A stretch of 64,000 bases of DNA from an uncultured Gammaproteobacteria bacterium. Its GTDB lineage: Bacteria > Patescibacteriota > Patescibacteriia > CAZGFX01. The stretch covers positions 227,428 through 291,427 of the forward strand of contig CAZGFX010000002.1 of assembly GCA_964524845.1 (NCBI GenBank), read 5' to 3'. Each line of letters starts with the position of its first letter. Positions within the stretch are counted from its first letter, which is position 1. The notes beneath the pieces are model-generated. The model had not been told where the DNA came from, did not search any database, and saw nothing but the letters and a program-made list of their open reading frames with translations. This document shows positions 11,999 through 61,432 of this stretch, piece after piece. A program made the translations under genes and the position numbers.

Positions 11999-12073
11999 TG
12001 GTGGGTCCAGTGGGGGTCGAACCCACGACCAATAGCTTAAAAGGCTACTGCTCTACCACTGAGCTATAGACCC
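11999..12073 (-). tRNA. tRNA-Lys (anticodon UUU), CCA encoded
   Basis: Reverse complement GGGTCTATAGCTCAGTGGTAGAGCAGTAGCCTTTTAAGCTATTGGTCGTGGGTTCGACCCCCACTGGACCCACCA folds as a cloverleaf. Acceptor GGGTCTA/TGGACCC, anticodon loop CTTTTAA, T-loop TTCGACC. Confidence 0.85.
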
Positions 12074-12174
12074 ATGAGTGGTAAATTAGAAAAGACAAAA
12101 CAGATACATATTAGAAGAACTATAAGATCTTGGCAACCCGCCCCGCAGATCGAACGAAAGTGAGATTGTGCGGG

Positions 12175-12201
12175 GAGCTATAGACCCATGAGTGGTAAAT
12201 T
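12175..12201 (-). repeat. 27-bp direct duplicate of tRNA-Lys 5' end (13 nt) plus 14 nt of its upstream flank
   Basis: gagctatagacccatgagtggtaaatt is identical at 12061-12087 and 12175-12201. A 22-nt direct repeat ccgccccgcagatcgaacgaaa occurs at 12138-12159 and 12275-12297. Hairpins ccccgca...tgcgggg and gtcctgag..ctcaggac lie between. Confidence 0.7.
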
Positions 12202-12380
12202 CTAAATGAAACAATACTTAAATTTTCAAAAAACCACAATAGCTCGGTAACCTTGTCCTGAGCTTGTCTCAGGACCGCCCCGCAGATCGAACGAAAAACA
12301 AAAAACCTGTTGTATTATATGTGCTTTTTTTGTTTTTAGCAAGACGTTTTTTCATATTGCTTTAAATGTAATTTTTGGAA

Positions 12381-17607: not shown

Positions 17608-18327
17608 TTACAACTTTCCAAGGAAAACTCGCTCAAAAATATCTCCGTGCAAAACCTTATCCCCAGGTCCTTCAGTAACAACACGACCCTTGTCTAGAAT
17701 ATATGCCCTATCAACAACAGACAAGAGAGACTTAATATTGTGTTCAACAATCATAATTGCCGTATTGTGTCGTTCGTTTATTTCTTTTATTTTTTCAAAA
17801 ATTTCTTTCACAATCTTCGGAGCAAGACCAAGTGTCGGTTCATCAAGCAAAAGAACTTTCGGATCGCTCATAAGTCCGCGAGCAAGCGCAACCATTTGTT
17901 GTTGTCCTCCCGAAAGCGTTCCTGATGATTGTTTCAGTCTTGATTTTAATATTGGAAACAACTCCATAACTTCTTCAAACTTAATATCCGCGCCTCTTTT
18001 GTCATGAAGTACGAAACCACCTAATTCTATATTTTCTCGAACCGAAAGTGATGGAAAAACCCTTCTCCCCTGCGGTACAAAAGAGATCCCCAAGCGTACC
18101 ATATGATGAGGAATCGGATCAATCTGCTTTTCGTGCCAAAATACTTTTCCTGAATCGATCGGAGCAATTCCAAAAACAGCTTTCAAAATTGTACTTTTCC
18201 CAGCGCCATTAGGACCCATGACAGCAACGATCTCTCCTTCGTCAATAGCAACACTAGCACCATCAAGCGCCTTAACTCCTCCGTAATGTACGGAAATATC
18301 TTTTAGCTGTAATAATGTTTCTTTCAT
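17608..18327 (-). CDS. livF: branched-chain amino acid ABC transporter ATP-binding protein (LivF-type)
   Basis: Walker A GPNGAGKST. ABC signature LSGGQQQ. Walker B LLLDEP. Confidence 0.85.
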   Translation of the reverse strand: MKETLLQLKDISVHYGGVKALDGASVAIDEGEIVAVMGPNGAGKSTILKAVFGIAPIDSGKVFWHEKQIDPIPHHMVRLGISFVPQGRRVFPSLSVRENIELGGFVLHDKRGADIKFEEVMELFPILKSRLKQSSGTLSGGQQQMVALARGLMSDPKVLLLDEPTLGLAPKIVKEIFEKIKEINERHNTAIMIVEHNIKSLLSVVDRAYILDKGRVVTEGPGDKVLHGDIFERVFLGKL

Positions 18328-18389
18328 TTACCCTGTGAAATAAAATTTTTTATTATCGTTCGAACTTGTTTATTGTGTCACCACGAATG

Positions 18390-18606
18390 AATATTATCAT
18401 CATAAGCTTACATTGTCATCCTGAACAATGTCATCCTGAACTAACTTTGTCATCCTGAACTAACTTTGTCATCCTGAACTCGTTTCAGGATCTATGTATC
18501 TGTTTCAGGATCTACCTTGATACATTGTATTTTAGTAAAATTTATTTCTCATATTATCAAAAGTTACACGGTAGATTCTGAAACGAGTTCAGAATGACAG
18601 TGTTGT
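18390..18606. repeat. MITE-like element copy A (repeat family 1)
   Basis: Tandem caatgtcatcctgaa units. Core flanked by TIRs gtcatcctgaactcgtttcag ... ctgaaacgagttcagaatgac. Near-identical core at 26110-26285 and 61231-61432. Confidence 0.6.
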
Positions 18607-18646
18607 ATAATTCGCAATTTGTAATTCGCAATCCGTAATTCAACAC

Positions 18647-19378
18647 CTACTCCCCCAAATATGCCTCGATGACACTTCTTTTCTTAAGCACGTCTTCCGC
18701 TTCACCTTCCGCAAGAAGTTGTCCGCTATCCATCACAATAACATGATCCGAAAGTTCTCTGATAATGTCCATATTATGCTCTATCAGAACGACCGTCTTA
18801 CCATGAGAACGCAATTCCTTGATGACAGTAACTATAATTTTTCTCATTTCCGGAAAAAGACCAGCGAATGGTTCGTCGAGAAGATAAATTTCAGCTTGTA
18901 CAGCAAGCGCTCTCGCGATCTCTAGGAGTTTTCTTTGTCCATAAGACAACTCACGTCCCAGCGCTGTTCTTTTTTCCCAAAGACCAACTTTTTTTAAAAG
19001 TTCCTCTGCACGTCCGAGATGAAACTTGCTGTGTGTTTCAAACAAACTATTAAAAACATTTCTGTCCGTAAGCACCACAAGAAGATTATCGAGCACGGTC
19101 ATTTGTTCGAAAAGTCTCACCTCTTGAAACGTGCGTGTTATTCCATATAAAAATGAATCGTGTGGTTTTATCTTCTTTAAACACGCACTGTCAATACAAA
19201 TCGTACCGCCGTCAAACTGAAGCATACCACTCAGTACGTTTGTAAGAGTTGTTTTTCCTGATCCGTTTGGTCCTATGACGCTTGTTACCTTCCCTTGTTC
19301 TATCTCAATCGAAAGGTCATCTACCGCCCGAATTCCATTGAATCGTTTTGTCAGATTTGCTGTTTTAAGGACGTGCAT
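18647..19378 (-). CDS. livG: branched-chain amino acid ABC transporter ATP-binding protein (LivG-type)
   Basis: Walker A GPNGSGKTT. Signature LSYGQRK. Walker B YLLDEP. Confidence 0.85.
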   Translation of the reverse strand: MHVLKTANLTKRFNGIRAVDDLSIEIEQGKVTSVIGPNGSGKTTLTNVLSGMLQFDGGTICIDSACLKKIKPHDSFLYGITRTFQEVRLFEQMTVLDNLLVVLTDRNVFNSLFETHSKFHLGRAEELLKKVGLWEKRTALGRELSYGQRKLLEIARALAVQAEIYLLDEPFAGLFPEMRKIIVTVIKELRSHGKTVVLIEHNMDIIRELSDHVIVMDSGQLLAEGEAEDVLKKRSVIEAYLGE

Positions 19379-19489
19379 ATGAGTATTGTACTGATTTTAG
19401 GAATTAAAAGCAATGTTTTTGGCTTTGTTCTATATGTTTTATACAAAATAAAAAGACACCATGTAAATTAACACGATGTCTTATTAAAC

Positions 19490-19798
19490 TTATTCTAATA
19501 CGATACCCAAATTATTAGAAAAATGTTCGTTAATATAACCACAAATAGCAATCCAATTTCCCTCCACTTGAACGCAGGTTTTTGTGTTTTTTAAAATAGC
19601 TGTGTTGTTTTCCATAAAAAACACACATCCAGAATATCCATTCCCATAATTCTCAACTGTTTCGGTTTTGTCTCCTGCAAAAGCAAAAAACAAGACTTCA
19701 TCCGGATACGTTTTATCACCATCGTCAACAATCTCTGAATGAGGAATTTTTGTTAAACGTTTTTTTAAACCGTCCAATTTGTAATCCAAGAAAGACAT
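19490..19798 (-). CDS. small hypothetical protein (102 aa) embedded in the liv operon
   Basis: ORF with ATG start. No known motif. Flanked by a repeat element. Confidence 0.35.
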   Translation of the reverse strand: MSFLDYKLDGLKKRLTKIPHSEIVDDGDKTYPDEVLFFAFAGDKTETVENYGNGYSGCVFFMENNTAILKNTKTCVQVEGNWIAICGYINEHFSNNLGIVLE

Positions 19799-19874
19799 AA
19801 AAAACTCCTTTTTTTATTGTGGTTTTAATTATTCATTATATAAACATTTTTCATATCAAGTTACCATACTCAGA

Positions 19875-20150
19875 CACTTTTGTCAATAACCAAAAACCCC
19901 CTGTATAAAACAAGTTTTTCACTAATTTTCCTCGTAATTTCCCCTTCTCGTAATTCGTTCACCCTGTGAAATAAGATTCGAAACAGGCTGAGGTTTTGTT
20001 TATAAATTAATCAAAAATAATTGATTAAACATATATAATAGTAAAAATTAATCCGAATCTTAATTTCAGTATGAAATTATTTCACAGGGTAAATTCGCAA
20101 TCCGTAATTCTTCTCCCTTCTCGTAATTTCCTATCTCGTAATTCTTAATT
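19875..20150. repeat. non-autonomous copy of the TIR element (repeat family 2) with flanking ctcgtaatt-type short tandem repeats
   Basis: TIRs ttcaccctgtgaaataa (19958-19974) and ttatttcacagggtaaa (20077-20093). Upstream ccaaaaacc..tgtataaaacaagttt shared with the 24790 copy. Confidence 0.55.
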
Positions 20151-20154
20151 TATA

Positions 20155-21288
20155 TTATTCTTTATAATCAACAATCTTACCTCCTTTTATTTGTTTTAAC
20201 TGCAAATTAAGTCCTACAACATCTCCGTTTGAATCAAAATGATATGATCCGAGTACTCCATCATAATTTTTGATTCCATACAAATAATCTTTTACTTTAT
20301 CCGTGTTTGTTCCTACCTTCCCTATCGCCTCAGCAAGTAAATATATTTGATCGTACGCTCCGCCAGCGGCAAAAGGATAGGGTGGTTCTGAGTTATATTT
20401 TGATTTATATACTAACATGAAATCATTTGCTTTTGTATTTTTTGGATCAAAGACAGGTGTGTCAACCATAATTGCTCCCTCGGTTGCAGATCCGGATCCG
20501 GTAAATTCTTCTCCGGATAAAAACGCCCCATAAAGTTGTTGTTTCATACCAGCGTCGCGAATTTGTTTAACAATACGAGCGGCCGTTGGACCTGATTGTG
20601 GATTAAAAACAATTGCATCAGGGTTATTCTCCTTAATTTTTACAAGAAGAGATTTAAAATCCGTCGTTCCTGAAACAAATCTCTCTTGTGCTATAATCGT
20701 ACCACCTAATTCTATATAACGGTTTTTAAAAACATTTTCTATCGCGGTTGTATAATCGGTAAGCTCAGTAATAAGAGCTGTTTTTTTGTATTTTTTAATA
20801 ATTGTCTCAGCAAGAAGCTTTCCACTCTCAGCGTCACTTGGCCATGTACGAAAAACGTAATCTGCCATAGATGTAATTTGAGGACTTGACCCCTGCGCCA
20901 TTACAATAACTTTTTCTTTCTCTGTAATAGGAATGGAAGAGATCACTTCTCCACTACACACAAGCCCAATAATAAATTTTGTTTTATCAATAGACACAAG
21001 TTTTTGGGCAGCTATCGTCGCTTCTTTATTATTGCACTTACTGTCTTCATATATCGGTTCGATTCTTTTTCCATTAATGCCTACGCTCGCATTAATTTCA
21101 TCAATTGCAAGTGTAGTCGCATTCTTTATAGACTCTCCAAAAACAGCTGTTTCTCCTGAAAAAGATGCCATCACACCAATTTTTATCGTGTTTGAATCAC
21201 CGGTTTTTTTATCATTCAACACCGCATACCCGCCACCAATGATAACAAGTGCAATAATTATATAAAGAATTGTCTTATTTGATTTCAT
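20155..21288 (-). CDS. LivK-type (type I periplasmic-binding-fold) substrate-binding protein, TM-anchored
   Basis: N-terminal anchor MKSNKTILYIIIALVIIGGGYA. IKIGV...GE...G motifs of the Leu/Ile/Val-binding family. Confidence 0.8.
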   Translation of the reverse strand: MKSNKTILYIIIALVIIGGGYAVLNDKKTGDSNTIKIGVMASFSGETAVFGESIKNATTLAIDEINASVGINGKRIEPIYEDSKCNNKEATIAAQKLVSIDKTKFIIGLVCSGEVISSIPITEKEKVIVMAQGSSPQITSMADYVFRTWPSDAESGKLLAETIIKKYKKTALITELTDYTTAIENVFKNRYIELGGTIIAQERFVSGTTDFKSLLVKIKENNPDAIVFNPQSGPTAARIVKQIRDAGMKQQLYGAFLSGEEFTGSGSATEGAIMVDTPVFDPKNTKANDFMLVYKSKYNSEPPYPFAAGGAYDQIYLLAEAIGKVGTNTDKVKDYLYGIKNYDGVLGSYHFDSNGDVVGLNLQLKQIKGGKIVDYKE

Positions 21289-21299
21289 ATGTATTATGA

Positions 21300-22433
21300 T
21301 TATTGATTTATGTCTTCTAATTTTTTATTATGTATCCTTCTTAATATAAATTCGCGAACAGCATCTCCGTTTTTATCAATACTAATCATACCACTAGAAC
21401 CTTTATAATTTTGAACTGAGTATAAATAATCCTTGATACAATCTGCTTTATAATTATCTTTGCAGTAAACAATACCATCGTATAACACATTATAAACATC
21501 ATAACCCAGTGTAGCAACCATTGTATCTTTTAAAGAAGTTCCGTATTTTTTCTCATAAGAACTAATTAGGTGTTGTGTCTCTGGGCTTTGTGTATCATAT
21601 TTATACATCGTAACGATCATGCCCTCAGCATCAGGATTGTCTGTAACAACACTCATACTAAAAGTTTCGTTTCCTATTATTTGTTTTTTAATTCCGAACT
21701 CTTTGGTCTGTTTGAGAACAATATTTTGTAACGCTGGAGTTAAAAATACATAAACCAAAGCATCTACGTCTTCGTTCTGTAGTTTTAATAATTGGCTTTT
21801 AACATCCGTGTCGGCTGAATTAACACTTTCTGAAACAATTGTATTTCCTGGGGTTTCCTTAAACTTCTTTTCAAAAACATCTTTCCAAGTAACAGAATAT
21901 TCATTCTTTTCGTAAAGAATACCTAGTTTTTTATATGAAAGTTTTTTAATCATTTCAGCAGAAACATCGGCACGTACTTCAGACGAAGCCGTTATACGAA
22001 ATACGTAATCTCCCGCTGTAGTTAAGTTCGGTGTAGCTGCAATTGGTGTAATTAAAATCACACGATTACTCTCTGCCAAAGGAGCAACAGCAAGAGTAGA
22101 GCTACTACACACTCCTGATATAAGAATTTTCACTTTATCAACATCTATAAGTTTTTGAGCGGCTGAAACAGCTTTTTTCGGATCACACATATCATCTTCG
22201 TATAAAACCTTAATTGTTTTACTTCCTATTTTTTGTTTTTCTTCCTCAGCAAGACGCAAAGAATTAACAGATTCTTCATATGCTCCCGCAAGAGGTCCTG
22301 TAAGAGGCCCAAAATATCCTATCTTTATCACATCAGAATTATTATCAGCTTTCTCATTCTTGAGCATCGCATACCCACCACCAATGATAACAAGCGCGAT
22401 AATTATATAAAGAATTGTCTTATTTGATTTCAT
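21300..22433 (-). CDS. LivK-type substrate-binding protein paralog
   Basis: First 22 aa and ~40 bp of upstream DNA identical to the 20155..21288 gene. Type I SBP fold motifs. Confidence 0.8.
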   Translation of the reverse strand: MKSNKTILYIIIALVIIGGGYAMLKNEKADNNSDVIKIGYFGPLTGPLAGAYEESVNSLRLAEEEKQKIGSKTIKVLYEDDMCDPKKAVSAAQKLIDVDKVKILISGVCSSSTLAVAPLAESNRVILITPIAATPNLTTAGDYVFRITASSEVRADVSAEMIKKLSYKKLGILYEKNEYSVTWKDVFEKKFKETPGNTIVSESVNSADTDVKSQLLKLQNEDVDALVYVFLTPALQNIVLKQTKEFGIKKQIIGNETFSMSVVTDNPDAEGMIVTMYKYDTQSPETQHLISSYEKKYGTSLKDTMVATLGYDVYNVLYDGIVYCKDNYKADCIKDYLYSVQNYKGSSGMISIDKNGDAVREFILRRIHNKKLEDINQ

Positions 22434-22444
22434 ATGTATTATGA

Positions 22445-23602
22445 TTATTGATTATTTTCGTATTTTATAATCTTTGAATCCTTAACTGTTTGCATCTCGA
22501 AACTATCTGGCGGCGTATCAACAAATCCATTTTGTTTAAAAGTAATTGATGTTAATGACACGCCCTGATAATTATTCGTTTTAGCAATGGCATCGCGAAG
22601 TATATCATTTCCCGCTAAATTTGTTTTCTCCAAAGCATCAGTAATAATTCCGACGGCATCATACGCGGTAATCGTACTCGGGAAAAGTACGTCCATTCCA
22701 TATTTTTGTTTGAATTTTTCATTAAATTCTATAAATCTTGACGAACGAACCGGAGCACTAAAATAAACATTTTCTAATTGTTTTGGGCATTGTGACAAAG
22801 AAACATCATTACCAGCGGCCTCAGTAGCTAACAGTGGTATCATAAGACCCATATCCTTCATTTGTTGTAATAAAGCGCATTCATTTATATCTCCAACCAC
22901 CATAAACAAAGCATCTGGTTTTGATTGTTTTATTTTCAAAAGATGAGTACGAAAATCCGTCACAAGCGGATTACCAAGATCAATATCCTCAACAATATTA
23001 ACTCCATAACTCGGAGCCCTCTCTACAAAAATATCATGTGTAAACTTCCAAAAACCACCATCAAACACACGCATCAAAGCGATGTTTTTCAAGTTCTTTT
23101 TCTTCGCAAAATCGAGAACGACATCAATACCAACTCTACTGTCATACCATGTTCCAAAAAGATATTCGTATGATTTTTGTGCTTCAACATTATCGGTGGT
23201 ATTGTGACCAATCATAGGAATCCGAGCCGCCTCAATCGCTGGAAGTATTGCTTCTGTGGGTTCGTCCCATTGTGCACCGACAATTGCTTTTACTTTATCG
23301 ACACTGATGAGTTTATTTGCAACAAGTCCGGCGTTTTTTAGCTTATCAATTGACAAGTCCTCTCCAATAAACTCAATTCTTTTTCCTTTTATACCTCCGT
23401 TGATATTAATTTCTTCGACTGCCAGTTCCGCGCCCCTTAACTCCTCAAGTCCCATTGATGCGCCGGCACCAGTCAAAGCAAACACTCCTCCTATTTTTAC
23501 TGTACCACTGTTCTGTCTTGATTGAAACAAAACATATCCTACAAAAACAATAATAATGATAATAACTGCGATTTTAAATATTCTATTACTTTTCATAATC
23601 AT
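22445..23602 (-). CDS. LivK-type substrate-binding protein paralog
   Basis: N-terminal TM anchor. VKIGGVFALTGAGAS...GIKGKRIE motif block. Confidence 0.8.
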   Translation of the reverse strand: MIMKSNRIFKIAVIIIIIVFVGYVLFQSRQNSGTVKIGGVFALTGAGASMGLEELRGAELAVEEININGGIKGKRIEFIGEDLSIDKLKNAGLVANKLISVDKVKAIVGAQWDEPTEAILPAIEAARIPMIGHNTTDNVEAQKSYEYLFGTWYDSRVGIDVVLDFAKKKNLKNIALMRVFDGGFWKFTHDIFVERAPSYGVNIVEDIDLGNPLVTDFRTHLLKIKQSKPDALFMVVGDINECALLQQMKDMGLMIPLLATEAAGNDVSLSQCPKQLENVYFSAPVRSSRFIEFNEKFKQKYGMDVLFPSTITAYDAVGIITDALEKTNLAGNDILRDAIAKTNNYQGVSLTSITFKQNGFVDTPPDSFEMQTVKDSKIIKYENNQ

Positions 23603-23614
23603 AAATTAAAAAGA

Positions 23615-24769
23615 TTATCCGTCATATCTCATGAACTTTCCATCTTTAACTGTCTTGAAGAAAATTTGCTTAATTGCATCACCATTTTCATCAATATCAA
23701 ATGTACCACTTGCACCCTTAAAACCTTTTGTTTCGTATAAACATTGTTTAACTGCATCAACATCATCTCCCTCAGCCTCAACGCATCCACTCAACAAATA
23801 TGCCGCATCATATGCGTTTGCCGCAACTGTGTCTGGTTCTGTGGAAAAACGCTCAACGTACTTAGAATAAAACCTCTTTACCGCCGGTGATTCGTCGTGA
23901 TTATCGTACGAATATGGATATAGAAGTCCTTCGGCATATTTTCCTGCGTTTTTCACTATTTCAGGACCTTCTGTTCCTAGATTATAAAATTGTGCATCAA
24001 TTCCAAGTTCACGCGCTTGTTTAAGAATAAGGCCGATTTGTTTGTTCCCTGCTATTGTAAAAATACTGGTCGGCTTTTGCGCTTTTAACTTTAATAATTC
24101 AGTTTTAAAATCAGTCGCCTTACTATCAAATTTTTCTATACTACCAATTGTTTTACCACTTGATTCAAAAACAGAACGAAACCTGTTTATATACGGATCA
24201 CTAATGGCTGTATTAATGGCAAGAAAATGAATTACACCTCCTTGCATATGCTTCGCCACGAAACGAGCTGATACAGGTGCCTCTTGTGCAACATTATGAA
24301 TAATTCTGAAAACATAATCTCCTGCTTGTGATATCTCATCTGTTTGAGCACTATGAGAAATCATAATTGTTTTTGATTGCTCTGCAATCGGAGCAACCGC
24401 CAACACTTCTGATGAATTATACGGACCAATAATATAATGGATTTTATCTAAATCAATAAACTTACGAACAGCACTTACAGCAACTTGTGGCTCATACCGA
24501 GTGTCTTCATACAGAAAATTAATTTTGTATTTGTTTTTTGTGTTTGAATTAATTTCTTCTTCCGCAATCGAAATTCCATTTTTTGTAAACTCACCAGCAT
24601 CTGCACGAACCCCGGTAAGAGGAGCAGGAATCCCAATTGTGATTGTCTTAGGATAATCTGGATCATGCCTCAACATAATGACATATCCTGTGACAATAAT
24701 AATCGCAATAATAATTATATATACAGTAATACTAGCCTTTTTTATATTCATATCTTGTTCGTTCAACAC
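23615..24769 (-). CDS. LivK-type substrate-binding protein paralog
   Basis: N-terminal TM anchor. ITIGIPAPLTG motif. Type I SBP fold. Confidence 0.8.
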   Translation of the reverse strand: MLNEQDMNIKKASITVYIIIIAIIIVTGYVIMLRHDPDYPKTITIGIPAPLTGVRADAGEFTKNGISIAEEEINSNTKNKYKINFLYEDTRYEPQVAVSAVRKFIDLDKIHYIIGPYNSSEVLAVAPIAEQSKTIMISHSAQTDEISQAGDYVFRIIHNVAQEAPVSARFVAKHMQGGVIHFLAINTAISDPYINRFRSVFESSGKTIGSIEKFDSKATDFKTELLKLKAQKPTSIFTIAGNKQIGLILKQARELGIDAQFYNLGTEGPEIVKNAGKYAEGLLYPYSYDNHDESPAVKRFYSKYVERFSTEPDTVAANAYDAAYLLSGCVEAEGDDVDAVKQCLYETKGFKGASGTFDIDENGDAIKQIFFKTVKDGKFMRYDG

Positions 24770-24789
24770 TCATATTTTATTACTTTTAA

Positions 24790-25180
24790 GCCAAAAAGCA
24801 ACTACCAAAAAACCTTGTATAAAACAAGTTTCCACTAATCCTTCTCGTAATTTTCCCTTCTCGTAATTCGTTCACCCTGTGAAATAAGATTTGAGCCTTC
24901 TTTTAATAAACATCTTACCATAAAAAGTCTTTAAATACTTTTCTCTTCGTGTGGCATCCTGTTGATTAAGACAAACCTCAAAATAAATAAGTTTTAAAGG
25001 TCTTCTCTCTTTTGTTGATGGTATTAACCCTTTATTATGTCGCTCAAATCTTAACTTCAAATTTTTTGTATACCCAGTATACATCTTATTATCTTTTTTA
25101 CTCTTTAATACATATGTATAAAACATATAATAATTGTTTTATATAAAAAATTTGGAGTTATTTCACAGGGTAAATTTATA
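24790..25180. mobile_element. TIR-bounded element carrying a GIY-YIG nuclease gene (repeat family 2, putative autonomous copy)
   Basis: Inverted repeats ttcaccctgtgaaataa (24871-24887) and ttatttcacagggtaaa (25158-25174) bracket the GIY-YIG ORF. Same TIRs and flank occur without the ORF at 19875-20150. Solo TIRs at 18328, 26043 and 56985. Confidence 0.5.
24872..25126 (-). CDS. GIY-YIG nuclease family protein (YhbQ/UPF0213-like, 84 aa)
   Basis: MFYTYVLKSKKDNKMYTGYTKNLKLRFERHNKG matches the GIY-x10-YIG...R...E..H core. Conserved downstream E in LIYFE. Confidence 0.8.
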   Translation of the reverse strand: MFYTYVLKSKKDNKMYTGYTKNLKLRFERHNKGLIPSTKERRPLKLIYFEVCLNQQDATRREKYLKTFYGKMFIKRRLKSYFTG

Positions 25181-26042
25181 ATTTATATTCTCCTTTAAGT
25201 CCTTGTGGGCGATATATCATAAGAAAAACAAGAAGTGCTCCATATACCACCTGTCGCATCTGTGCCGCTATATCGGTTGGAAATCCAACAAAACGCATAA
25301 TTTCCGGTAACAAAATAAGAAACAAGGCACCAAGAAGCGATCCTTCTAAATTAGCAAGACCGCCTAAAATAATTATCGCTAATATAAAAATAGATTCCGG
25401 AAGCGCGAATGTCGACGGATCAATAAATGTAATATAAGAAGCAAAAAGAGCTCCGGCAATTGCGGCCATACCCGCCGATATCATAAAAATAACAAGTTTA
25501 TACTGCAGTGTGTTATATCCGAAAACTTGTAACGCTTTTTCGTCATCACGAATAGCTTTGAGAGCGCGTCCAAACGATGACTTGGTAACATATCGCGCAC
25601 ATATATATACAATGATCATGAATAACGCACTTAAAACAAGAAACGTCAGATTATCACGAAAAACAAATCCGAATATCTCCGGTCTTCCTATTCCTGGAAT
25701 ACCGAGCGGGCCTCGAGTAAGATCCTGCCAGTTCAATAAAATACTAAACACAATAACATTGAAACCAAACGATGCAAGAGCATAATAATCTGATTCAAAT
25801 TTGCTCATAACGAATCCAATTAGAAAGCTCACCGCCATCGAGAGAATGATACTGAATATAACAGCAACAAAAAAATTAACACCGAGCTCAGTCATCAGAA
25901 TTGCCGATGCATACGCACCAACACCATAAAAAGCCGCGTGCGTTACTGACAAAAGCCCTGTATATCCTACGACCAAATTCAAACTTATACCAAGTATGGC
26001 ATATATTGTGAAAAGTATCGCTAAATGTATTAAATATTCCAT
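25176..26042 (-). CDS. livM: branched-chain amino acid ABC transporter permease (LivM-type)
   Basis: 8-10 TM helices. Permease family motifs (GLLSVTHAAFYGVGAY). Confidence 0.8.
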   Translation of the reverse strand: MEYLIHLAILFTIYAILGISLNLVVGYTGLLSVTHAAFYGVGAYASAILMTELGVNFFVAVIFSIILSMAVSFLIGFVMSKFESDYYALASFGFNVIVFSILLNWQDLTRGPLGIPGIGRPEIFGFVFRDNLTFLVLSALFMIIVYICARYVTKSSFGRALKAIRDDEKALQVFGYNTLQYKLVIFMISAGMAAIAGALFASYITFIDPSTFALPESIFILAIIILGGLANLEGSLLGALFLILLPEIMRFVGFPTDIAAQMRQVVYGALLVFLMIYRPQGLKGEYKL

Positions 26043-26109
26043 TTACCCTGTGAAATAAGGTTTTTTTAATTCGTAATTCAAACTTTTTTATTGTACTACA
26101 TTAAAAGAA

Positions 26110-26285
26110 CATTATCATCTTAGATTGACCTTGTCATGTTGAACATTGTCATCCTGAACTGACCCTGTCATCCTGAACTCGTTTCAGGATCTACCTTGAT
26201 ACAATGTTTTCTAGGAAAACTTATAACACATATTATCAAAAGTTACACGGCAGATGCTGAAACGAGTTCAGCATGACATTGTGGC
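26110..26285. repeat. MITE-like element copy B (repeat family 1), followed by cgtaattc short tandem repeats to 26343
   Basis: Same TIRs and core as 18390-18606. Occupies the livH-livM intergenic spacer. Confidence 0.6.
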
Positions 26286-26343
26286 GTAATTCGTAATTAT
26301 TCTTCCCTCTCGTAATTTTCCCTTCTCGTAATTCGTAATTGTA

Positions 26344-27258
26344 TTACTTCTTTTTAAATATTCCCGATGGTCTGAAGAGAAGGAAAACGATAAGCACCCC
26401 AAATGCAATAGCGTCTTTCCACTCGCCGGATATCTTCCAAATACCGAAGTTCTCTATAAATCCGAGAAGCATCGCTCCAGCAAAACCTCCGTATGTATTT
26501 CCAACACCTCCGATAATTGCCGCGATGACACCCTTGAGAAGCAGTGCCATACCCATCGTAGGTTCAAGTCCCGTGTCAAACCCAACAAGTGCACCAGCAA
26601 GTCCGGCAATGGCCGAACCGATAATAAATACAATCGATATTATTTTATTGACATTGATACCAACCACTTTCGAAACCTCCTGATCATCGCTTACAGCACG
26701 AATAGCATATCCGATTTTTGTCTTTTTCAAGAAAATTACAAGTCCTCCCATAATCAACGCCGCGCACACCAACATGATCAATTGTATTTCTGTAATAACA
26801 CCTCCAAAAATAGTATATACTTTATTTTCTGTAAGTGATGTCGAGAGTGTCTGAAATTGACTTGTAAACAAAATCGCTATGATCGCCTGAATTGCCGTAA
26901 AAGCACCGAGAGATGCGACAAGATACACCATGAGAGACGCTTTTCGCGAACGAAGTTGTCTATATATGGACACCTCAAGTCCCCATCCGATCATGGCGGC
27001 AAGAACAACACCAAGAATGACGCTTGGAATGATACCAATCTCCGTATTTTTAATGAAAAACAATGCGGTATAACCACCAACAGCAGCCAGCACCCCGTGT
27101 GCCAGATTAAAAAACTTGGTCGTATTGTACGTCAAATTAAAACCAAGAGCCACGAGCGCATAAATCGCGCCGGCAATAATACTATTGACTGTAAGTTGAA
27201 TGACTATATCCACATGGCTTATTATAGCGAAAATACGAAATAAATCAAAAACACCCAA
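26344..27258 (-). CDS. livH: branched-chain amino acid ABC transporter permease (LivH-type)
   Basis: 304 aa, 8 TM. LivH-like motif GFNLTYNTTKFFNLAHG. Confidence 0.8.
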   Translation of the reverse strand: MGVFDLFRIFAIISHVDIVIQLTVNSIIAGAIYALVALGFNLTYNTTKFFNLAHGVLAAVGGYTALFFIKNTEIGIIPSVILGVVLAAMIGWGLEVSIYRQLRSRKASLMVYLVASLGAFTAIQAIIAILFTSQFQTLSTSLTENKVYTIFGGVITEIQLIMLVCAALIMGGLVIFLKKTKIGYAIRAVSDDQEVSKVVGINVNKIISIVFIIGSAIAGLAGALVGFDTGLEPTMGMALLLKGVIAAIIGGVGNTYGGFAGAMLLGFIENFGIWKISGEWKDAIAFGVLIVFLLFRPSGIFKKK

Positions 27259-27290
27259 TTAATGTTCGAGTGTTTTTTGATTATAATAAT

Positions 27291-28391
27291 TTATTTTACA
27301 GGGATCTGCTTTCCGTTTTTAATTTCATAAACACTTGCACGAGATATTACAATTCCGTCCTTATCAACAGAAAGAGGTCCTAAAACTCCTTCAAAATTCG
27401 TAATTTCTTGAAGTGCTTTTGCTATTTCACCAGTTGACGGATAATGATCTTTTCCGACTTTTTCTGTAGAATAGACAAACAAATTAAATACATCATATGT
27501 ATTCGGTGCACCAGGAGTAACTTCCTTATTAAATTCAGAATTAAATTTATTTCTAAATTCATCTGTTGCATTTGCGGCATCAACATACCAACATCCTTCA
27601 ATTAACTCTTTTTGATTTGAAAAAGAAAAAGCCTCAATAGACGTCAGTGGAGTTGTAATTCCAAGATCTTTTATTTGTTTAGTAATTATTTCCAGTTCTG
27701 GAGAAAAAGCAAGAATATATATAATATCAGGATTTTTCTGTTGTATTCTAGTAATTATCGTTTTAAAATCTTTTTCTCCACTGTTATACCATTCGCTTTG
27801 AACGATAGATATATCAGTATCTTTCAAATGTTCTCTGATTTCGTCATCGATGGCTTTCGCTCCTTGTTGATTCAATGCAATTGTTGCAATCTTTTTTATG
27901 CCTCTTTTTTTAAATTCTTCTACAACAAGTTTTGCTTCTTCTGATGGAGGTGTCCAATGCATAAAATTATATTCTCCTTTTGCTATATTTGCATCAGACG
28001 CAATACCAAAATGCACCACTTTATTCGTCTCAGCAACTGGTGTAACAACATTTCCACTTCCTGAAGTAAATGATATAACAGCGCTTACCTTATCAATATT
28101 TATTAACTTATTAACAGCGCTTGCTGTCATTTTTGGATTAAGTTGATCATCTTCATAAACAACATCATATTTATATTTTGTTGTCTTTTTGTCTTTCATA
28201 GCAAGTGTTAAAGAATTTTTAACACCTTCACCAAGATGTGCCATATCACCGGTCAATGGAAGAATTACTCCTATCTTTATCGTCTCCTGTTTATCGTTTT
28301 GTGATGTCTTGTTTGTTGTAATAGTATATACCGCTCCTACAACAACCAAAACAGCTACCACCCAGACTAGAATTTTGTTTTGTTTCGACAT
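27291..28391 (-). CDS. LivK-type substrate-binding protein paralog
   Basis: N-terminus MSKQNKILVWVVAVLVVVGAVYTITTNKTSQNDKQETIKIGVI identical to the 30808..31944 gene. Type I SBP motifs. Confidence 0.8.
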   Translation of the reverse strand: MSKQNKILVWVVAVLVVVGAVYTITTNKTSQNDKQETIKIGVILPLTGDMAHLGEGVKNSLTLAMKDKKTTKYKYDVVYEDDQLNPKMTASAVNKLINIDKVSAVISFTSGSGNVVTPVAETNKVVHFGIASDANIAKGEYNFMHWTPPSEEAKLVVEEFKKRGIKKIATIALNQQGAKAIDDEIREHLKDTDISIVQSEWYNSGEKDFKTIITRIQQKNPDIIYILAFSPELEIITKQIKDLGITTPLTSIEAFSFSNQKELIEGCWYVDAANATDEFRNKFNSEFNKEVTPGAPNTYDVFNLFVYSTEKVGKDHYPSTGEIAKALQEITNFEGVLGPLSVDKDGIVISRASVYEIKNGKQIPVK

Positions 28392-28412
28392 ATAAAAGAA
28401 TTATTATCGATT

Positions 28413-29561
28413 TTATTTATAAATTTCCGGTATTCCATTTCGAATAATTTTAACAACATGCCCTCCAATACGATCACCATCCGCACCTATTTCTACAAGA
28501 CCAGAAGCGCCTTTCCAGTCTTTGACAGATCTGAACCATGCAGCAATTTTAGAAGTGTCAGTACCGACCGCCTTAATAGCGTCACGAATCATATATACAG
28601 CGTCATATTCCGTCTGTCCGTAACTCTGATATGGCATCTCTTTTCCAAATTGTTTTTGATATTCATTAATAAAATTTTTAAATATAGAATTAGTAGGATC
28701 GACACCAAATTCAGCTGCAAAAGCTCCTTCAAGAGCACTTTTATTACGTTGAACCATCTCATTTGCACCTGACACAGCGTCAGACACAATAAGAGATGGC
28801 TTCCAACCTAAATCGGCCATTTGTTTAAAAATGCGATCAGCTGCGGCCGGAGTTTGTGGAACAACGAATAATGCATCTGGGTTCTCATTGCGCAACTTAG
28901 TAAGAATAGTCTTAAAATCAGTAACAGTCGAAGGGAATTCTTCTTTTACTACTGTTCCGCCAAGTTCAGAAAATTTATTATTGAAAGCATTGTATATACC
29001 AAGAGCATAGTCGGTTTGTTCCTGAATAAATGCTATCTTCTTCCATTGTTTATTTGTGTATGCTAATTGAGCAAGTGTTGATCCTTGTGTCGCATCACTT
29101 GGATAATTTCGAACAAAATAATCACTTATTCCGGTCAGTGCTGGACTACTTGACCCAGCAGAAATCATAAATACTTTATTTTCCAGAGCAATTGGAACAG
29201 CGGATAGCGATTCACTACTGCAAAATCCCCCAATAATAATTTTTACTTTATCAACAGTAATAAGTTTTGACGCGGCGTTTGCACCATCTTTGCCACTACA
29301 CTTACCGTCTTCTACTATGAGGTTTATTTTCTTTCCGTTAATACCTCCTGATGCATTAATCTCGTTAACTGCCATTTGATATATATTACGAGCCGGTTCA
29401 CCATAAAAAGCCGCGTCTCCTGACAATGGCACTATTACTCCTATCTTTATCGTCTCCTGTTTATCATTTTGTGATGTCTTGTTTGTTATGATTGTGTACA
29501 CAGCACCTACAATCACAATTATCGCCACAATCCATACTAAAACATTATTTCGTTTACTCAT
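28413..29561 (-). CDS. LivK-type substrate-binding protein paralog
   Basis: Near-identical N-terminal 45 aa to the neighbouring paralogs. SBP fold. Confidence 0.8.
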   Translation of the reverse strand: MSKRNNVLVWIVAIIVIVGAVYTIITNKTSQNDKQETIKIGVIVPLSGDAAFYGEPARNIYQMAVNEINASGGINGKKINLIVEDGKCSGKDGANAASKLITVDKVKIIIGGFCSSESLSAVPIALENKVFMISAGSSSPALTGISDYFVRNYPSDATQGSTLAQLAYTNKQWKKIAFIQEQTDYALGIYNAFNNKFSELGGTVVKEEFPSTVTDFKTILTKLRNENPDALFVVPQTPAAADRIFKQMADLGWKPSLIVSDAVSGANEMVQRNKSALEGAFAAEFGVDPTNSIFKNFINEYQKQFGKEMPYQSYGQTEYDAVYMIRDAIKAVGTDTSKIAAWFRSVKDWKGASGLVEIGADGDRIGGHVVKIIRNGIPEIYK

Positions 29562-29675
29562 AGATTAATTAATTATACCTAAATATTACTCTCTATCTCT
29601 GTCGAAAATCAAGTTTTTATCAACAAAAAAAACGTTAAAAAACCAGGCTTATTACAATTAAAATAAGTTATTAAT

Positions 29676-30779
29676 TTATGGTTTTTTTTCAAGCAATACT
29701 TGCTTTCCGTCTCTTATCTCATATACATCAGCCTTTGAAACAACTATCCCATCTGTATCTATCGTGAGAGATCCCATAGCTCCAGAAAAATCTTTGATTA
29801 TATGAAGATTTTTTATTATCTCATCCGCGGTTGGACGATTGTTTGTTTTTACGTTCTCAATCGCATACACAAGTAATTTTATTATATCGTATGAATTTGG
29901 CGCACCTTGAGTGATTGTTGTTTTGTATGTATTTTCATATAATTGTTTGAATTGTAGTGACGGATCTCCAGCATCAACATACCAACTTCCTTCAAGTAAT
30001 TCTTTGTTCTTTGCCCATGAAAACGCTTCAATCGAAGTAAGTGGTGTGGTAATTCCTAAATCTTTAATTTGTTTTATAACAAGCTCGAGTTCTGGAGAAA
30101 AAGCCTTAATAGATATTATATCTGGATTTCCTTTTTGTGCTTTAAGAATAACCGTTTTAAAATCAGTATCTCCTTTCATAATCAACTCATCTCCGACTAT
30201 TTCAATATCAGTTTTTTTAAGATATTCGTTTGCCGCAGAATGAGTTGCCAACGCGCCCTGTTGATTTAAAGTAATTGAAGATATTTTCTTTATTTCTCTT
30301 TTTTTCAACTCTTCTACAAATAATTTTGCTTTTTCAGCAGGGGGTGTCCAATGAATAAAATTATATTCTCCTTTGGCAATATTCGCATCATTTGCAATGC
30401 CGAAATGAATAATTTTATTCGTCTCAGCTATCGGAGCAATAACATTTCCACTTCCTGAAGTAAACGATATAACCGCATCAACCTTATCTATATTGATAAG
30501 CTTATTGATTGCTGAGGCGGTTTTTTTTGGATCAAGCTGGTCATCCTCAAATATGAGTTCATATTTATAATGTGTGTTTTTTATTGAATCATAAGCCAAA
30601 AGAACACCATTTCGAACACCTTCTCCAAGCGAAGCCATGTTCCCACTCAAAGGAGCGATAACTCCTATTTTAATTATATTATTATTTTCTAAATCTTTTT
30701 TTGTCGCGACAATATAAATTCCACCAACAAAAAATAGACATATCACGATCCATATGATAATTTTATTTTCTTTTGACAT
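29676..30779 (-). CDS. LivK-type substrate-binding protein paralog
   Basis: N-terminal TM anchor. IKIGVIAPLSGNMASLGEG motif. Confidence 0.8.
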   Translation of the reverse strand: MSKENKIIIWIVICLFFVGGIYIVATKKDLENNNIIKIGVIAPLSGNMASLGEGVRNGVLLAYDSIKNTHYKYELIFEDDQLDPKKTASAINKLINIDKVDAVISFTSGSGNVIAPIAETNKIIHFGIANDANIAKGEYNFIHWTPPAEKAKLFVEELKKREIKKISSITLNQQGALATHSAANEYLKKTDIEIVGDELIMKGDTDFKTVILKAQKGNPDIISIKAFSPELELVIKQIKDLGITTPLTSIEAFSWAKNKELLEGSWYVDAGDPSLQFKQLYENTYKTTITQGAPNSYDIIKLLVYAIENVKTNNRPTADEIIKNLHIIKDFSGAMGSLTIDTDGIVVSKADVYEIRDGKQVLLEKKP

Positions 30780-30807
30780 AAAAAATATTATTAATATCGA
30801 TTATTTT

Positions 30808-31944
30808 TTATTCATTTAATTTAATAAACGTTCCGTTTTCTAATTTCATTAATTGAACATCTCTTCTTGCTTCTCCGTTTTCATCGAAATCTATTTTTCC
30901 TCCCGCACCAACGTAATTGTGTGTTTCATATAAAACATTTTTTATTTTTTCTGTATTATAACCGACTTTTTTTACAATATTTATAATAATTTTAAAAGCA
31001 TCATAACCATTTATAGAATAAATTCCTGCGTTTTCGCCATATCTTAATTTATATATATTATTGAAATCTGTGTAAAAAGGGTTATTTTCATCTATTCCTT
31101 CATTAGCAATAATTGTTCCTTCGCTTGAATTTTTAGCTTGTTTATATAAATCATCTGATTTTAAAGAAGATATGCCAAACCACGTCGGCTTCAGTCCTAA
31201 CTCAATGGATCTATTAAAAAAAGTTGCGGCTTGTTCAACAAGCAAAACAGTAAACACTGCGTCTGGGTTTTTTTCTTTTAAACTTAATGCTTTTGTTCTT
31301 AGGTCCATATCTCCTATTTGCAATAAATCACGTGCGATCAACTGTACTCCCATTGCAGAAAGCCTTTCTTCAAACGCATTAATATATGGTAAACCCGCTT
31401 CGTTATTCATTGCAATTGCAGCCACTCTTTTATAACCCTTTTTTTGTATATAATCAGCGATCGCATTTGCCTCGAAAGTCCCATTAACTCGATTTCTAAA
31501 AATAAAATCACCAGCATTGGTAATAGAAGGACTTGATGCAAGTGAAACAAAAAGAAGAACCTTGTTTTCATTTGCAATAGGTGCCATCGCCATAACAGAA
31601 CTACTCCCTGTTCCTGTAATAATTACTTTTACTCTATCAACCGATATTAGCTTTTGAAGTGCGCTAACAGAAGTTTTTGGATCACTTTTTCCATCTTCTA
31701 TTAATATTTGTATATTTTTTCTTACGCCATTTGATTTGTTCTCATTTTCAAAAGCTATTTCAATTCCATTTTTTACCCACCCTCCATATAATGACATTGG
31801 TCCTGTCAAATCTGCTATAACACCAATTTTTATAGTCTCTTGTTTATCGTTTTGTGATGTCTTGTTTGTTGTGATAGTATATACCGCTCCCACAACAACC
31901 AAAACAGCTACCACCCAGACTAGAATTTTGTTTTGTTTGGACAT
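30808..31944 (-). CDS. LivK-type substrate-binding protein paralog
   Basis: 5' ~130 nt identical to the 27291..28391 gene. SBP fold. Confidence 0.8.
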   Translation of the reverse strand: MSKQNKILVWVVAVLVVVGAVYTITTNKTSQNDKQETIKIGVIADLTGPMSLYGGWVKNGIEIAFENENKSNGVRKNIQILIEDGKSDPKTSVSALQKLISVDRVKVIITGTGSSSVMAMAPIANENKVLLFVSLASSPSITNAGDFIFRNRVNGTFEANAIADYIQKKGYKRVAAIAMNNEAGLPYINAFEERLSAMGVQLIARDLLQIGDMDLRTKALSLKEKNPDAVFTVLLVEQAATFFNRSIELGLKPTWFGISSLKSDDLYKQAKNSSEGTIIANEGIDENNPFYTDFNNIYKLRYGENAGIYSINGYDAFKIIINIVKKVGYNTEKIKNVLYETHNYVGAGGKIDFDENGEARRDVQLMKLENGTFIKLNE

Positions 31945-32036
31945 AAAAATAATTATTTATTCTGTACTTATAATACTCCTTATTTTAAGGAAATTTCAAG
32001 GAAACACGAACACATATAATTATCTACTCGATACTT

Positions 32037-33480: not shown

Positions 33481-33620
33481 TATATAGGATGAGACCTCTT
33501 CCTGACATACGTCAGGACAGGCTCCTCCGGTCGAGGTGACAATTTCCGCAAGGCGGGATCCCGCTTTGCGGTGGGTTGAGCCAAGTGAATGTGCCTGTAC
33601 TGAGCAGAACGAATGTGCCA
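33481..33620. repeat. GC-rich palindromic repeat unit (family 3), copy 1, in the rplU 5' leader region
   Basis: ggatgagacctcttcctgacatacgtcaggacaggc...tcgaggtgacaa, shared with 56711-56812. Strong palindrome ccgcaaggcggga/tcccgctttgcgg. Far more GC-rich than the surroundings. Confidence 0.5.
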
Positions 33621-56710: not shown

Positions 56711-56812
56711 GTGGATGAGACCTCTCCCTGACATGCGTCAGGGCAAGCATATTCGTTCGAGGTGACAAAGTTGGTCGAGGTGACAAGTCCCGCCGAGCGT
56801 CAGCGATGACGG
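56711..56812. repeat. GC-rich palindromic repeat unit (family 3), copy 2
   Basis: ggatgagacctctccctgacatgcgtcagggcaagc...tcgaggtgacaa, shared with 33481-33620. Confidence 0.5.
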
Positions 56813-56820
56813 GATATTAA

Positions 56821-56984
56821 CAATGTCATCCTGAACAATGTCATCCTGAATAATGCCATCCTGAACAATGTCATCCTGAACAATGTCATCCTGAACAATG
56901 TCATCCTGAATTTATTTCAGGATCTATGTATCTGTTTCAGGATCTGTGTATCTATTTCAGGATCTGTGTATCTGTTTCAGGATG
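56821..56984. repeat. tandem arrays of 6 x 15 bp (caatgtcatcctgaa) then 3.5 x 20 bp (tttcaggatctgtgtatctg); arms mutually complementary
   Basis: Direct reading. Units are the same motifs that form the family-1 MITE termini. Followed by a solo family-2 TIR at 56985-57005. Confidence 0.7.
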
Positions 56985-57529
56985 AAATTATTTCACAGGG
57001 TAAATTCATAATTTTTCTAAAATCAAAAACCCCGTAGCAAAAAATAACTAGATAAATATGCTACGGGGTTCAACCTATACCTATATACACGTCTGAGATA
57101 CGTATTACTATCTATACGAATAAGCTTTTGGATGAGGATTTGGGATTCGATCAGTTAGCCTCCATCTTTTTATGTGTACAAAATCTTTTCGACATTGGAA
57201 GTTTTCGGATCTTATGAAATAAGTTCTCGGACCTCCTTATGTGCCTAAAAACGATTTTGTAACGTGCCTATATATCGCCCGCATAGGAAGTTTAGTACAC
57301 GAACGAAACAATGGCATAAGTAAATATTGCTTGAAAAGTAACCACGGATTCCAAATGCACTCATCCACTATAGGTTTACGCCCACTTACAAAAAATTACA
57401 AATGAGAAAATCACCGTTTTGTACCCTGTTATGCACTTCTTATTTTTCCGCTAAAATAACATCTTTTAAAACAAGTTTATAATCATTATTTAACGAATAA
57501 AAAAAACAAACAGGAGAATTTAGTAGGGT

Positions 57530-60924: not shown

Positions 60925-60948
60925 TTACAAAACACCCTCAAGCGCCGT

Positions 60949-61110
60949 CGGTGGATAAACTAGCGCCGCCTGCCCTTCTCTTGCGAAGCAAGAGATAGGG
61001 TCGGTGGATAAACTAGCGCCGCCTGCCCTTCTCTTGCGAAGCAAGAGATAGGGTCGGTGGATAAACTAGCGCCGCCTGCCCCCTAGCGAAGCGAGGGACC
61101 TTACTGAGCG
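60949..61110. repeat. 3 x 53-bp GC-rich tandem repeat, each unit with a DnaA-box-like GGTGGATAA and a ctcttgc-gaa-gcaagag hairpin
   Basis: Units begin at 60949, 61002 and 61055 (third degenerate). 20-bp sub-repeats ccttactgagcgaagcgagg x2 at 61097-61135. Confidence 0.7.
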
Positions 61111-61189
61111 AAGCGAGGAACCTTACTGAGCGAAGCAAGAGATAGGGTCTGTTGATAAACCCTCTCACCATACACAAAACAAACCTCAT

Positions 61190-61207: not shown

Positions 61208-61230
61208 AAAAACAGCTCGTAAAGCTGTTT

Positions 61231-61432
61231 ATGTCATCCTGAACCATGTCATCCTGAATTTATTTCAGGATCTATATATCTGTTTCAGAATCTTCCTTGA
61301 TACATTGTGTATTATGTCATTCTGAACTTGTTTCAGAATCTTCCTTGATACATTGTTTTCTAGGAAAACTTATATTTCATATTATTAAAAGTTACACTGC
61401 AGATGCTGAAACGAGTTCGGCATAACGCAATG
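61231..61432. repeat. MITE-like element copy C (repeat family 1, with internal 40-bp duplication)
   Basis: Same termini and core as 18390-18606 and 26110-26285. Confidence 0.6.

Follow-up and report, generated by a model that had tools for sequence, protein, structure and literature searches.

A GIY-YIG nuclease gene nested in a conserved three-way-junction fold: a compact, probably mobile element of Patescibacteria and other bacteria

A conserved intrastrand three-way junction defines both a compact mobile unit carrying an 84-aa GIY-YIG nuclease gene and the gene-less miniatures of this unit. The unit was found in a window of 64,000 nucleotides (the whole stretch of DNA analyzed here) and compared with its homologous loci. 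The alignments indicate that the inverted arms surrounding the gene are just one helix of the junction, which includes coding sequence. We consider that we are probably dealing with a widespread compact mobile DNA element with a three-way-junction fold and an embedded nuclease, whose ends would be cut by this nuclease and which would be mobilized as single-stranded DNA (ssDNA). This reading is built on the observed anatomy of the unit, the covariation of its helices, its sharp boundaries, its duplication and the presence/absence polymorphism of a miniature.

In the window, the 17-nt motif TTYACCCTGTGAAATAA is found seven times (18327+, 19958+, 20077-, 24871+, 25158-, 26042+ and 56988-) for 0.36 copies expected, a number reached by none of 100 shuffles. 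Two inverted copies bracket the only GIY-YIG ORF of the window, which matches the Pfam family PF01541 with an E-value of 1.9e-16 (60.5 bits versus a cut-off of 22.6). This confirms the original prediction of a GIY-YIG gene located between 17-nt inverted repeats. The gene had been described as "exactly bracketed", which is right in that inverted arms are present on both sides; however, the left arm is part of the ORF except for its last base, since it encodes S-Y-F-T-G and the stop codon before this base. The right arm is located 31 nt upstream of the ATG, and the whole unit begins one base past the stop codon of livM. The protein has no exact match in assemblies. The predicted 136-bp ORF-less copy is real and shares with the full copy a flank of about 66-75 nt beyond the arm (91% identity); given the approximately 75 nt that are common beyond the arm, their sequences suggest that the two copies may originate from a segmental duplication. 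The three solo arms that had been reported (18327, 26042 and 56988) are indeed present, with no partner arm within about 400 nt. The coordinates of all these features are given in Table 1.

Table 1. Positions in the window of the GIY-YIG unit, its helices, its ORF-less derivative and the solo arms
Feature	Position	Strand	Sequence	Basis or remark
Complete unit, 304 nt (5' arm, leader, GIY-YIG ORF, 3' arm)	24871..25174	-		Conservation limits, 76 aligned units
Single-domain GIY-YIG nuclease ORF, 84 aa, stop included	24872..25126	-		PF01541
P1 5' arm (right terminal inverted repeat of the original prediction)	25158..25174	-	TTTACCCTGTGAAATAA	
P1 3' arm (left terminal inverted repeat of the original prediction)	24871..24887	-	TTATTTCACAGGGTGAA	Synonymous sites frozen, codons 78-84; runs from the last base of codon 80 through codons 81-84 and the stop to one further base
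P2 5' arm, leader	25146..25157	-	CTCCAAATTTTT	Pairs with codons 21-24; covariation across loci
P2 3' arm, codons 21-24	25055..25066	-	AAAAATTTGAAG	
P3 5' arm, codons 25-29	25042..25054	-	TTAAGATTTGAGC	Contains invariant Arg26, candidate catalytic Arg
P3 3' arm, codons 77-81	24885..24896	-	GCTCAAATCTTA	
ORF-less derivative, 136 nt, junction kept	19958..20093	-		P1 arms 20077-20093 and 19958-19974
Mini-P2 hairpin of the ORF-less copy	20064-20076		TTTCA-tac-TGAAA	
P3 of the ORF-less copy	20054-20063 paired with 19972-19980	-		Compensatory changes versus the full copy
Solo arm	18327..18343	.		Abuts the ATG of the minus-strand ABC ATPase gene 17608..18327
Solo arm	26042..26058	.		Abuts the ATG of livM (25176..26042); end of the 301-nt block 26043-26343
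Solo 5'-type arm with mini-P2 hairpin	56975..57004	-	TTTCA-tcc-TGAAA (hairpin)	Runs into SRM-like hairpin arrays; family D14

The ctcgtaatt repeat, supposed to be always near the arms, lies close to some of them but is missing near the one at 56988. Its eight copies (CTCGTAATT), all on the plus strand (AAUUACGAG in the liv transcript), are found only in the spacers of the liv operon, directly after stop codons (19931-20143, 24844-24868 and 26309-26333) and outside the GIY-YIG unit. This repeat, which had been viewed as a companion of the element, is a separate and genome-specific one that is not found beside the units of other genomes.

Homologs flanked by the same repeats, for which a search had been proposed, were found at all of the 80 homologous loci. 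In 76 of them, an inverted copy of the last 14 nt of the gene is located 25-46 nt upstream of the ATG; in the four others, the arm is present with an indel or extra mismatches. The variable position of the arms covaries (T-A in 51 loci, C-G in 13, G-C in 10 and two wobbles). The units are 285-306 nt long. When 76 of them are aligned, the similarity between loci starts exactly at TTYACCC and stops exactly at GGGTRAA, between unrelated flanks; the base at -1 is mostly A or G and the base at +1 is often T. These data contradict the scenario, raised together with the original prediction, in which the 17-nt motif would be a regulatory or ribosome-binding site of host genes unrelated to GIY-YIG. Two solo arms do abut the ATG of liv genes, as such a site could. 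However, elsewhere the same sequence beside an ATG is the 3' end of a GIY-YIG ORF, both arms accompany all 80 homologous genes, and the matching gene junctions of relatives, which are 1-2 nt long or overlapping, are devoid of the motif. Hence, we regard this scenario as hardly credible.

Along the gene, synonymous sites are near saturation, six-fold degenerate Leu and Arg codons reaching about 2.2-2.4 bits, and they are almost frozen in codons 22-28 and 78-84. These codons form two further helices. P2 joins the leader immediately downstream of the 5' arm (TTTTAAATT) to codons 22-24, and P3 joins codons 25-28 (TTAAGATTTGAG) to codons 78-81. The helices P1, P2 and P3 meet with at most two unpaired bases, or with none in an alternative register. 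Lineages differ by compensatory variants of these helices, for instance TTTCAAATC with GATTTGAAA, CTTGAG with CTCAAG, TGCAAATCC with GGATTTGCA and TTCAATATT with AATATTGAA. Furthermore, codons 26 (AGA or CGA) and 80 (TCT or TCG) covary in 11 cases out of 11, a synonymous pair of changes 54 codons apart.

In the alignment of 76 sequences, 94.4% of the cells are paired according to the three-helix model, and double changes affect 18 of its 36 pairs. Doubly changed cells amount to 113, versus 29.5±4.2 in shuffles (0/500 as high), and the pairing falls to 25-54% when the partners are slid by 1-3 columns. P1 and P3 are recovered independently by RNAalifold. Position 3 of P1 is a conserved non-Watson-Crick pair (C·A in 34 loci, T·G in 21 and Watson-Crick in 11), a bias with a Fisher p-value of 2e-8 when the loci are treated as independent. 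Folded as ssDNA, the unit of the window adopts the three-way junction in both the minimum free energy and the centroid structures (z=-5.4), as does the 136-nt copy (z=-6.7).

The junction could also be an RNA structure in the operon transcript, which would stabilize or autoregulate the nuclease mRNA, or would keep the stop codon next to the following start and so preserve translational coupling. The identical pairs would form in the sense RNA, the units are co-oriented with their neighbors and often have a stop codon and an ATG directly at their ends, and no promoter of its own is predicted for the unit of the window; the strong co-orientation with transcription would fit an RNA-level role too. 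However, a functional sense RNA would favor G·U pairs. Outside position 3, sense G·T pairs occupy 32 cells versus 45 for A·C pairs; given this lack of G·U bias, the fold is most likely one of DNA rather than RNA. Moreover, loops C-GAA-G and C-TTC-G are equally common in the miniatures, Rfam gives no match for the unit or for 12 miniature-bearing loci, and the related Ssn enzymes leave RNA uncut (PMC11893778). Sharp boundaries and indel polymorphism require a DNA-level process anyway. The RNA reading is therefore rather improbable in our opinion. A hammerhead-like ribozyme was also considered and rejected, since the junction has no unpaired core nucleotides and Rfam returned no match.

Gene-less derivatives of about 55-135 nt retain the junction in many metagenomes. 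In other genomes, where they were detected at several loci (L034, L029, L038, L039 and L090), they measure approximately 50-65 nt. For instance, the miniature of L034 reads TTCACCCTGTTAAAT-(CCCGC gaa GCGGG)-(AATTTCGCC aaa GGCGAAATT)-ATTTAACAGGGTAAA. Scanning metagenomes for paired arms separated by 18-48 nt retrieved at least 120 stretches, from which 80 unique miniatures were read. Among the matches listed, 62 of these 80 miniatures fold into P1 and two hairpins, and 48 of the 62 have no unpaired base at the junction. Also among the matches listed, triloops account for 87 of the 124 hairpin loops, most commonly with a C-G closure, and the complementary loop types (C-GAA-G versus C-TTC-G) have about equal frequencies. 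In the miniatures listed, position 3 is C·A or T·G in 45 cases and Watson-Crick in 10, although no stop codon is needed there. Whereas the sequences of P2 and P3 vary freely, P1 and the shape are conserved. These miniatures are MITE-like in being short and gene-less, in having the termini of the full unit and in showing insertion polymorphism.

Two contigs of a single metagenome-assembled genome (MAG), L055 and L056, carry units identical at 295 of 299 positions (98.7%) in unrelated flanks, and the identity breaks exactly at the ends of the arms. In a freshwater population, a 57-nt miniature is present in nine contigs, and a tenth contig (L087), identical on both sides, has TCTT instead. The presence/absence variation that had been proposed as a check does exist, in the form of a precise polymorphism of one miniature within one population. 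The TCTT seen when L081:4924-4980 is compared with L087 is possibly an excision footprint, or consists of target bases replaced on insertion. Pseudogenized or decayed units were also found (L015, L075 and L090:4276-4535). Many of the loci compared are from MAGs. In the window, the spacers of the liv operon reach 300-425 nt, versus 1-2 nt in relatives. In the relative whose LivM is at least 90% identical (P0241 contig, compared by its gene table and ending 54 nt after livM), livH and livM overlap by 1 nt, which indicates that the 301-nt block at the livM ATG of the window is an insertion. Taken with the arms present at all 80 loci and the abundance of gene-less miniatures, the duplicated unit and the indel polymorphism support the view of an autonomous element with non-autonomous derivatives.

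Target-site duplications, for which a check around the copies had been proposed, were not found: neither the 76 units nor the 80 miniatures lie between direct repeats. This is one of the arguments against a classical double-stranded transposon or IS whose arms would be transposase binding sites. Terminal inverted repeats, sharp ends and gene-less derivatives would all be expected from such an element. However, the sole ORF of the unit encodes the 84-aa GIY-YIG protein, and no DNA-binding, DDE, serine, tyrosine, HUH or other recombinase domain was detected in the unit. Furthermore, P2 and P3 covary and yet differ freely between lineages, which points to base pairing rather than to the recognition of a fixed motif by a protein. 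We therefore hold a transposon of this kind to be very improbable. The lack of target-site duplication, the four unexplained nucleotides TCTT in the empty allele and the low copy number also count against our own model of a mobile element, as do the flank shared by the two copies of the window and the rejoining of DNA, for which a hydrolytic GIY-YIG enzyme would need a partner.

Full units are low-copy, with one or two per genome among the loci seen, and one identical protein (P0067) has the same context in 24 contigs. This combination of low copy number and fixed context is closer to what a domesticated single-copy gene, for instance a RAYT, would show than to the behavior of an active IS. 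The nuclease might accordingly be a domesticated, Ssn-like ssDNA nuclease beneficial to the host, with the junctions as its target sites and the architecture as a relic of mobility; for example, in ultra-small bacteria with natural competence, it would limit or shape the recombination of DNA that is taken up. In Neisseria, transformation is modulated by Ssn nucleases that have their target hairpins on either side, and the stable position of the units in one population, the very strong purifying selection on the protein and the saturated synonymous sites go in the same direction. However, near-identical units in unrelated contexts (L055 and L056), the decayed copies mentioned above and the precise indel polymorphism of a miniature, which reflects ongoing turnover, do not fit well with domestication. 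We find this reading unlikely, although it is compatible with the one that we prefer.

The units have the same orientation as their neighbors in most cases (46:4 upstream and 55:5 downstream) and, for about a quarter of them, the next ATG is 0-5 nt from the stop codon. Neither a sigma-70-like promoter nor an intrinsic terminator was predicted in the unit of the window. Since the units have no evident promoter, are co-oriented and often fill exactly the interval separating a stop codon from the next ATG, they are probably expressed by read-through.

Under the mobile element model, the loops of P2 and P3 would carry the nuclease gene, the ends, the leader and the codons pairing within one strand. 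During a single-stranded phase (replication, DNA uptake or repair), the element would fold and its two ends would be brought together. The nuclease would recognize the GC-rich part of P1 (ACCCTGT/ACAGGGT) and the non-Watson-Crick pair at position 3, and would cut at the base of P1, where the mismatch would loosen the last base pairs, much as Ssn nucleases cleave ssDNA beside the hairpin repeats on either side of their genes. We infer this action on the junction from the precedent of Ssn and from the SLX1-like fold of the modeled protein. GIY-YIG enzymes hydrolyze DNA without a covalent intermediate; therefore, the rejoining of DNA would need a further partner beyond the nuclease, and host ligation or replication could complete excision and insertion. 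The gene-less miniatures, with P1 and two short hairpins, would be mobilized in trans. As a promoterless unit, the element would be expressed by read-through from the host operon and would burden the host little.

The homologues form more than 4200 clusters at about 75-84% identity, mostly from Patescibacteria, with an invariant C-terminus RLKSY[LF]TG. Other carriers among the genome loci include Bacteroidota, Desulfobacterota (on a closed chromosome of 4.16 Mb), Scalindua and others; one of them, the isolate Saccharicrinis sp. FJH54 (Bacteroidota, locus L067), is cultured. In a published survey, GIY-YIG proteins are listed among the genes that other bacteria are predicted to have acquired from Patescibacteria (PMC12455944). 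The high identity of the protein across phyla is by itself weak evidence of horizontal transfer, because the neighboring LivM is also approximately 75% identical across the same lineages. Carriage by phages was rejected, since only one distant relative was found in a scan of 2.9 million viral contigs. Moreover, no family of PADLOC (anti-phage defense) or PHROGs (phage) matches.

The protein is under very strong purifying selection, with saturated synonymous sites, and its residues Y16, G18, R26, H30 and E62 are invariant. The AF2 model (pLDDT 81) has a GIY-YIG fold (beta-beta-alpha-beta-alpha), and its best structural neighbors are UPF0213 BH0048, Slx1 (TM 0.65-0.70) and the catalytic domain of I-TevI. 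The best matches of the sequence profile against PDB are 1zg2 (UPF0213, E=4.8e-7) and 1ywl (E=5.7e-6). Profile and model thus suggest a nuclease lineage that is SLX1/UPF0213-like; membership in UPF0213 itself is not supported because the scores are weak, and no NCBIfam family reaches its cut-off for the 84-aa protein. The Ssn-like ORF of L021 (1914-2213), which has SRM-like flanks, shows 28% identity with the 84-aa protein and an hhalign probability of 67%, and the UPF0213 scores are slightly above those of this comparison. The 84-aa protein appears to belong to a clade separate from Ssn (cd10448), the Ssn side being represented in this sequence comparison by one Ssn-like ORF.

This Ssn-like gene of L021, a Buchananbacteria MAG, encodes 99 aa and lies between SRM-like inverted flanks (1850-2300), 0.5 kb upstream of an 84-aa unit; hence, two nuclease-and-repeat systems coexist there. 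Relatives of the 84-aa protein at 41-57% identity have their own flanking inverted repeats (L091:3950-4270, L095:480-900 and L124), the pair of L091 being ACCCCGTAGGATTT with AAATCCAACGGGGT. Being bracketed by structured repeats may be common to small GIY-YIG genes in general. In L008 (841-1557), a distant GIY-YIG relative reads in frame into a type IV pilin-like ORF (GFTIVELL...), which may be a fusion or a stop codon lost at the end of the element. At the gene junctions where the window has repeats, related genomes (L092-L095) harbor HEPN/nucleotidyltransferase toxin-antitoxin pairs and a 23S-rRNA-IVP gene.

The window contains other repeats. A second family consists of tGTCATCCTGAAC-n3-TTTCAGGATCT hairpins in tandem and inverted arrays (18409-18500, 18575-18600, 26127-26200, 26255-26290, 56804-56985 and 61227-61345). 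These SRM-like hairpins, which were read by eye, resemble an AT-rich version of the Ssn motif GTCAT + hairpin + ATC (PMC11893778); no Ssn-like gene was found in the window. A 565-nt intergenic region combines such hairpins with 53-nt tandem repeats (60947-61160) that carry GCGAAGC-type mini-hairpins, e.g. CTCTTGC-GAA-GCAAGAG. A dispersed structured repeat of 56 nt (33487-33542 and 56713-56768, 84% identity) contains the hairpin CCTGACATACGTCAGG. A 78-nt direct repeat (12061-12138 and 12175-12252, 76% identity) overlaps the tRNA-Lys gene (11999-12073, minus strand) and could be a scar left by the integration of an element at this tRNA. The liv ABC-transporter operon (17608-32000), which includes at least four tandem paralogues of the substrate-binding gene, is an insertion hot spot.

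If our explanation is correct, this is a new type of very small mobile element which, at about 300 bp, is among the smallest autonomous ones. A nuclease acting as the sole transposition enzyme would, if proven, found a new class. More tentatively, and less likely than not, this could be the first class of prokaryotic transposons having a bare, structure-selective GIY-YIG nuclease as only protein and a folded ssDNA three-way junction as ends, recognized by shape and a short conserved stem, with the gene as a part of the recognized structure. Its transposition logic would then be distinct from that of DDE, HUH, serine, tyrosine and Cas1 systems, and a large population of three-way-junction miniatures would extend across Patescibacteria and into Bacteroidota, Desulfobacterota and Planctomycetota. 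The unit also offers a clear natural case of overlapping codes, in which synonymous changes are coordinated between codons separated by more than 50 positions so that the DNA helix is kept. Moreover, the miniature junctions are a previously unannotated class of repeats of candidate-phyla-radiation genomes, where they break assemblies and occupy operon junctions. Like Ssn, a nuclease that cleaves ssDNA at a defined three-way junction would have practical use as an ssDNA tool.

Several known systems share part of these properties. Like the free-standing GIY-YIG homing endonucleases (Seg and Mob of T-even phages, I-TevI), the element would be a selfish GIY-YIG gene between host genes; however, homing endonucleases combine large DNA-binding domains with a spread that relies on homologous repair at a single cognate site, and they lack inverted arms and miniatures. 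Integron cassettes also carry small promoterless co-directional ORFs and a folded-ssDNA site with mispaired or extrahelical bases. Unlike the junction, attC is wholly downstream of the ORF and is used by a tyrosine recombinase acting at attI; the locus contains neither an integrase nor a cassette array. SLX1 and UPF0213 (YhbQ-like) proteins provide the best matches in sequence and fold, and SLX1 cuts branched DNA, but it requires SLX4 and has a RING domain. To our knowledge, UPF0213 genes embedded in conserved DNA structures have not been reported.

Elements of the IS200/IS605 family, which like REP/RAYT are functional analogues, are likewise small, with ends that depend on ssDNA structure and without target-site duplication, but they have a separate subterminal hairpin at each end instead of ends paired with each other, and a Y1 HUH transposase, and insert beside a specific target of 4-5 nt. 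The REP/REPIN-RAYT (TnpA-REP) system has a low-copy nuclease gene between inverted copies of a short structured repeat, and many gene-less hairpin copies presumed to be mobilized in trans as ssDNA, as proposed here for the miniatures. However, RAYT is an HUH/Y1 enzyme working through a covalent intermediate and REPINs are simple hairpins outside the gene, whereas here a GIY-YIG enzyme is associated with a three-way junction that includes coding sequence. Our literature searches found no description of a gene nested in a junction partly built from its own codons.

The closest precedent is that of the Ssn nucleases and their hairpin repeats, described in 2025. These are ssDNA-only, hairpin-guided GIY-YIG nucleases whose genes are flanked by NTS/SRM repeats, an IS-like architecture noted by the authors (Chenal et al. 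2025, Nat Commun, PMC11893778). For SRM and Ssn, the gene is present in 81% of the genomes rich in the repeat. Both systems have a single GIY-YIG domain of about 90 aa and inverted structured repeats on both sides that are also dispersed in the genome; activity on folded ssDNA is known for Ssn and, by analogy, is the working model for the 84-aa nuclease. If correct, our explanation would extend the Ssn discovery by suggesting that the reading of DNA shape by lone GIY-YIG domains exists in several independent families. Nevertheless, the clade appears to be another one and the architecture differs: the SRM pattern HGTCWY...hairpin...RNCYNB has no match in the window and three scattered ones in the 80 loci, and here one inverted pair encloses the whole gene, with one coding arm and two more helices.
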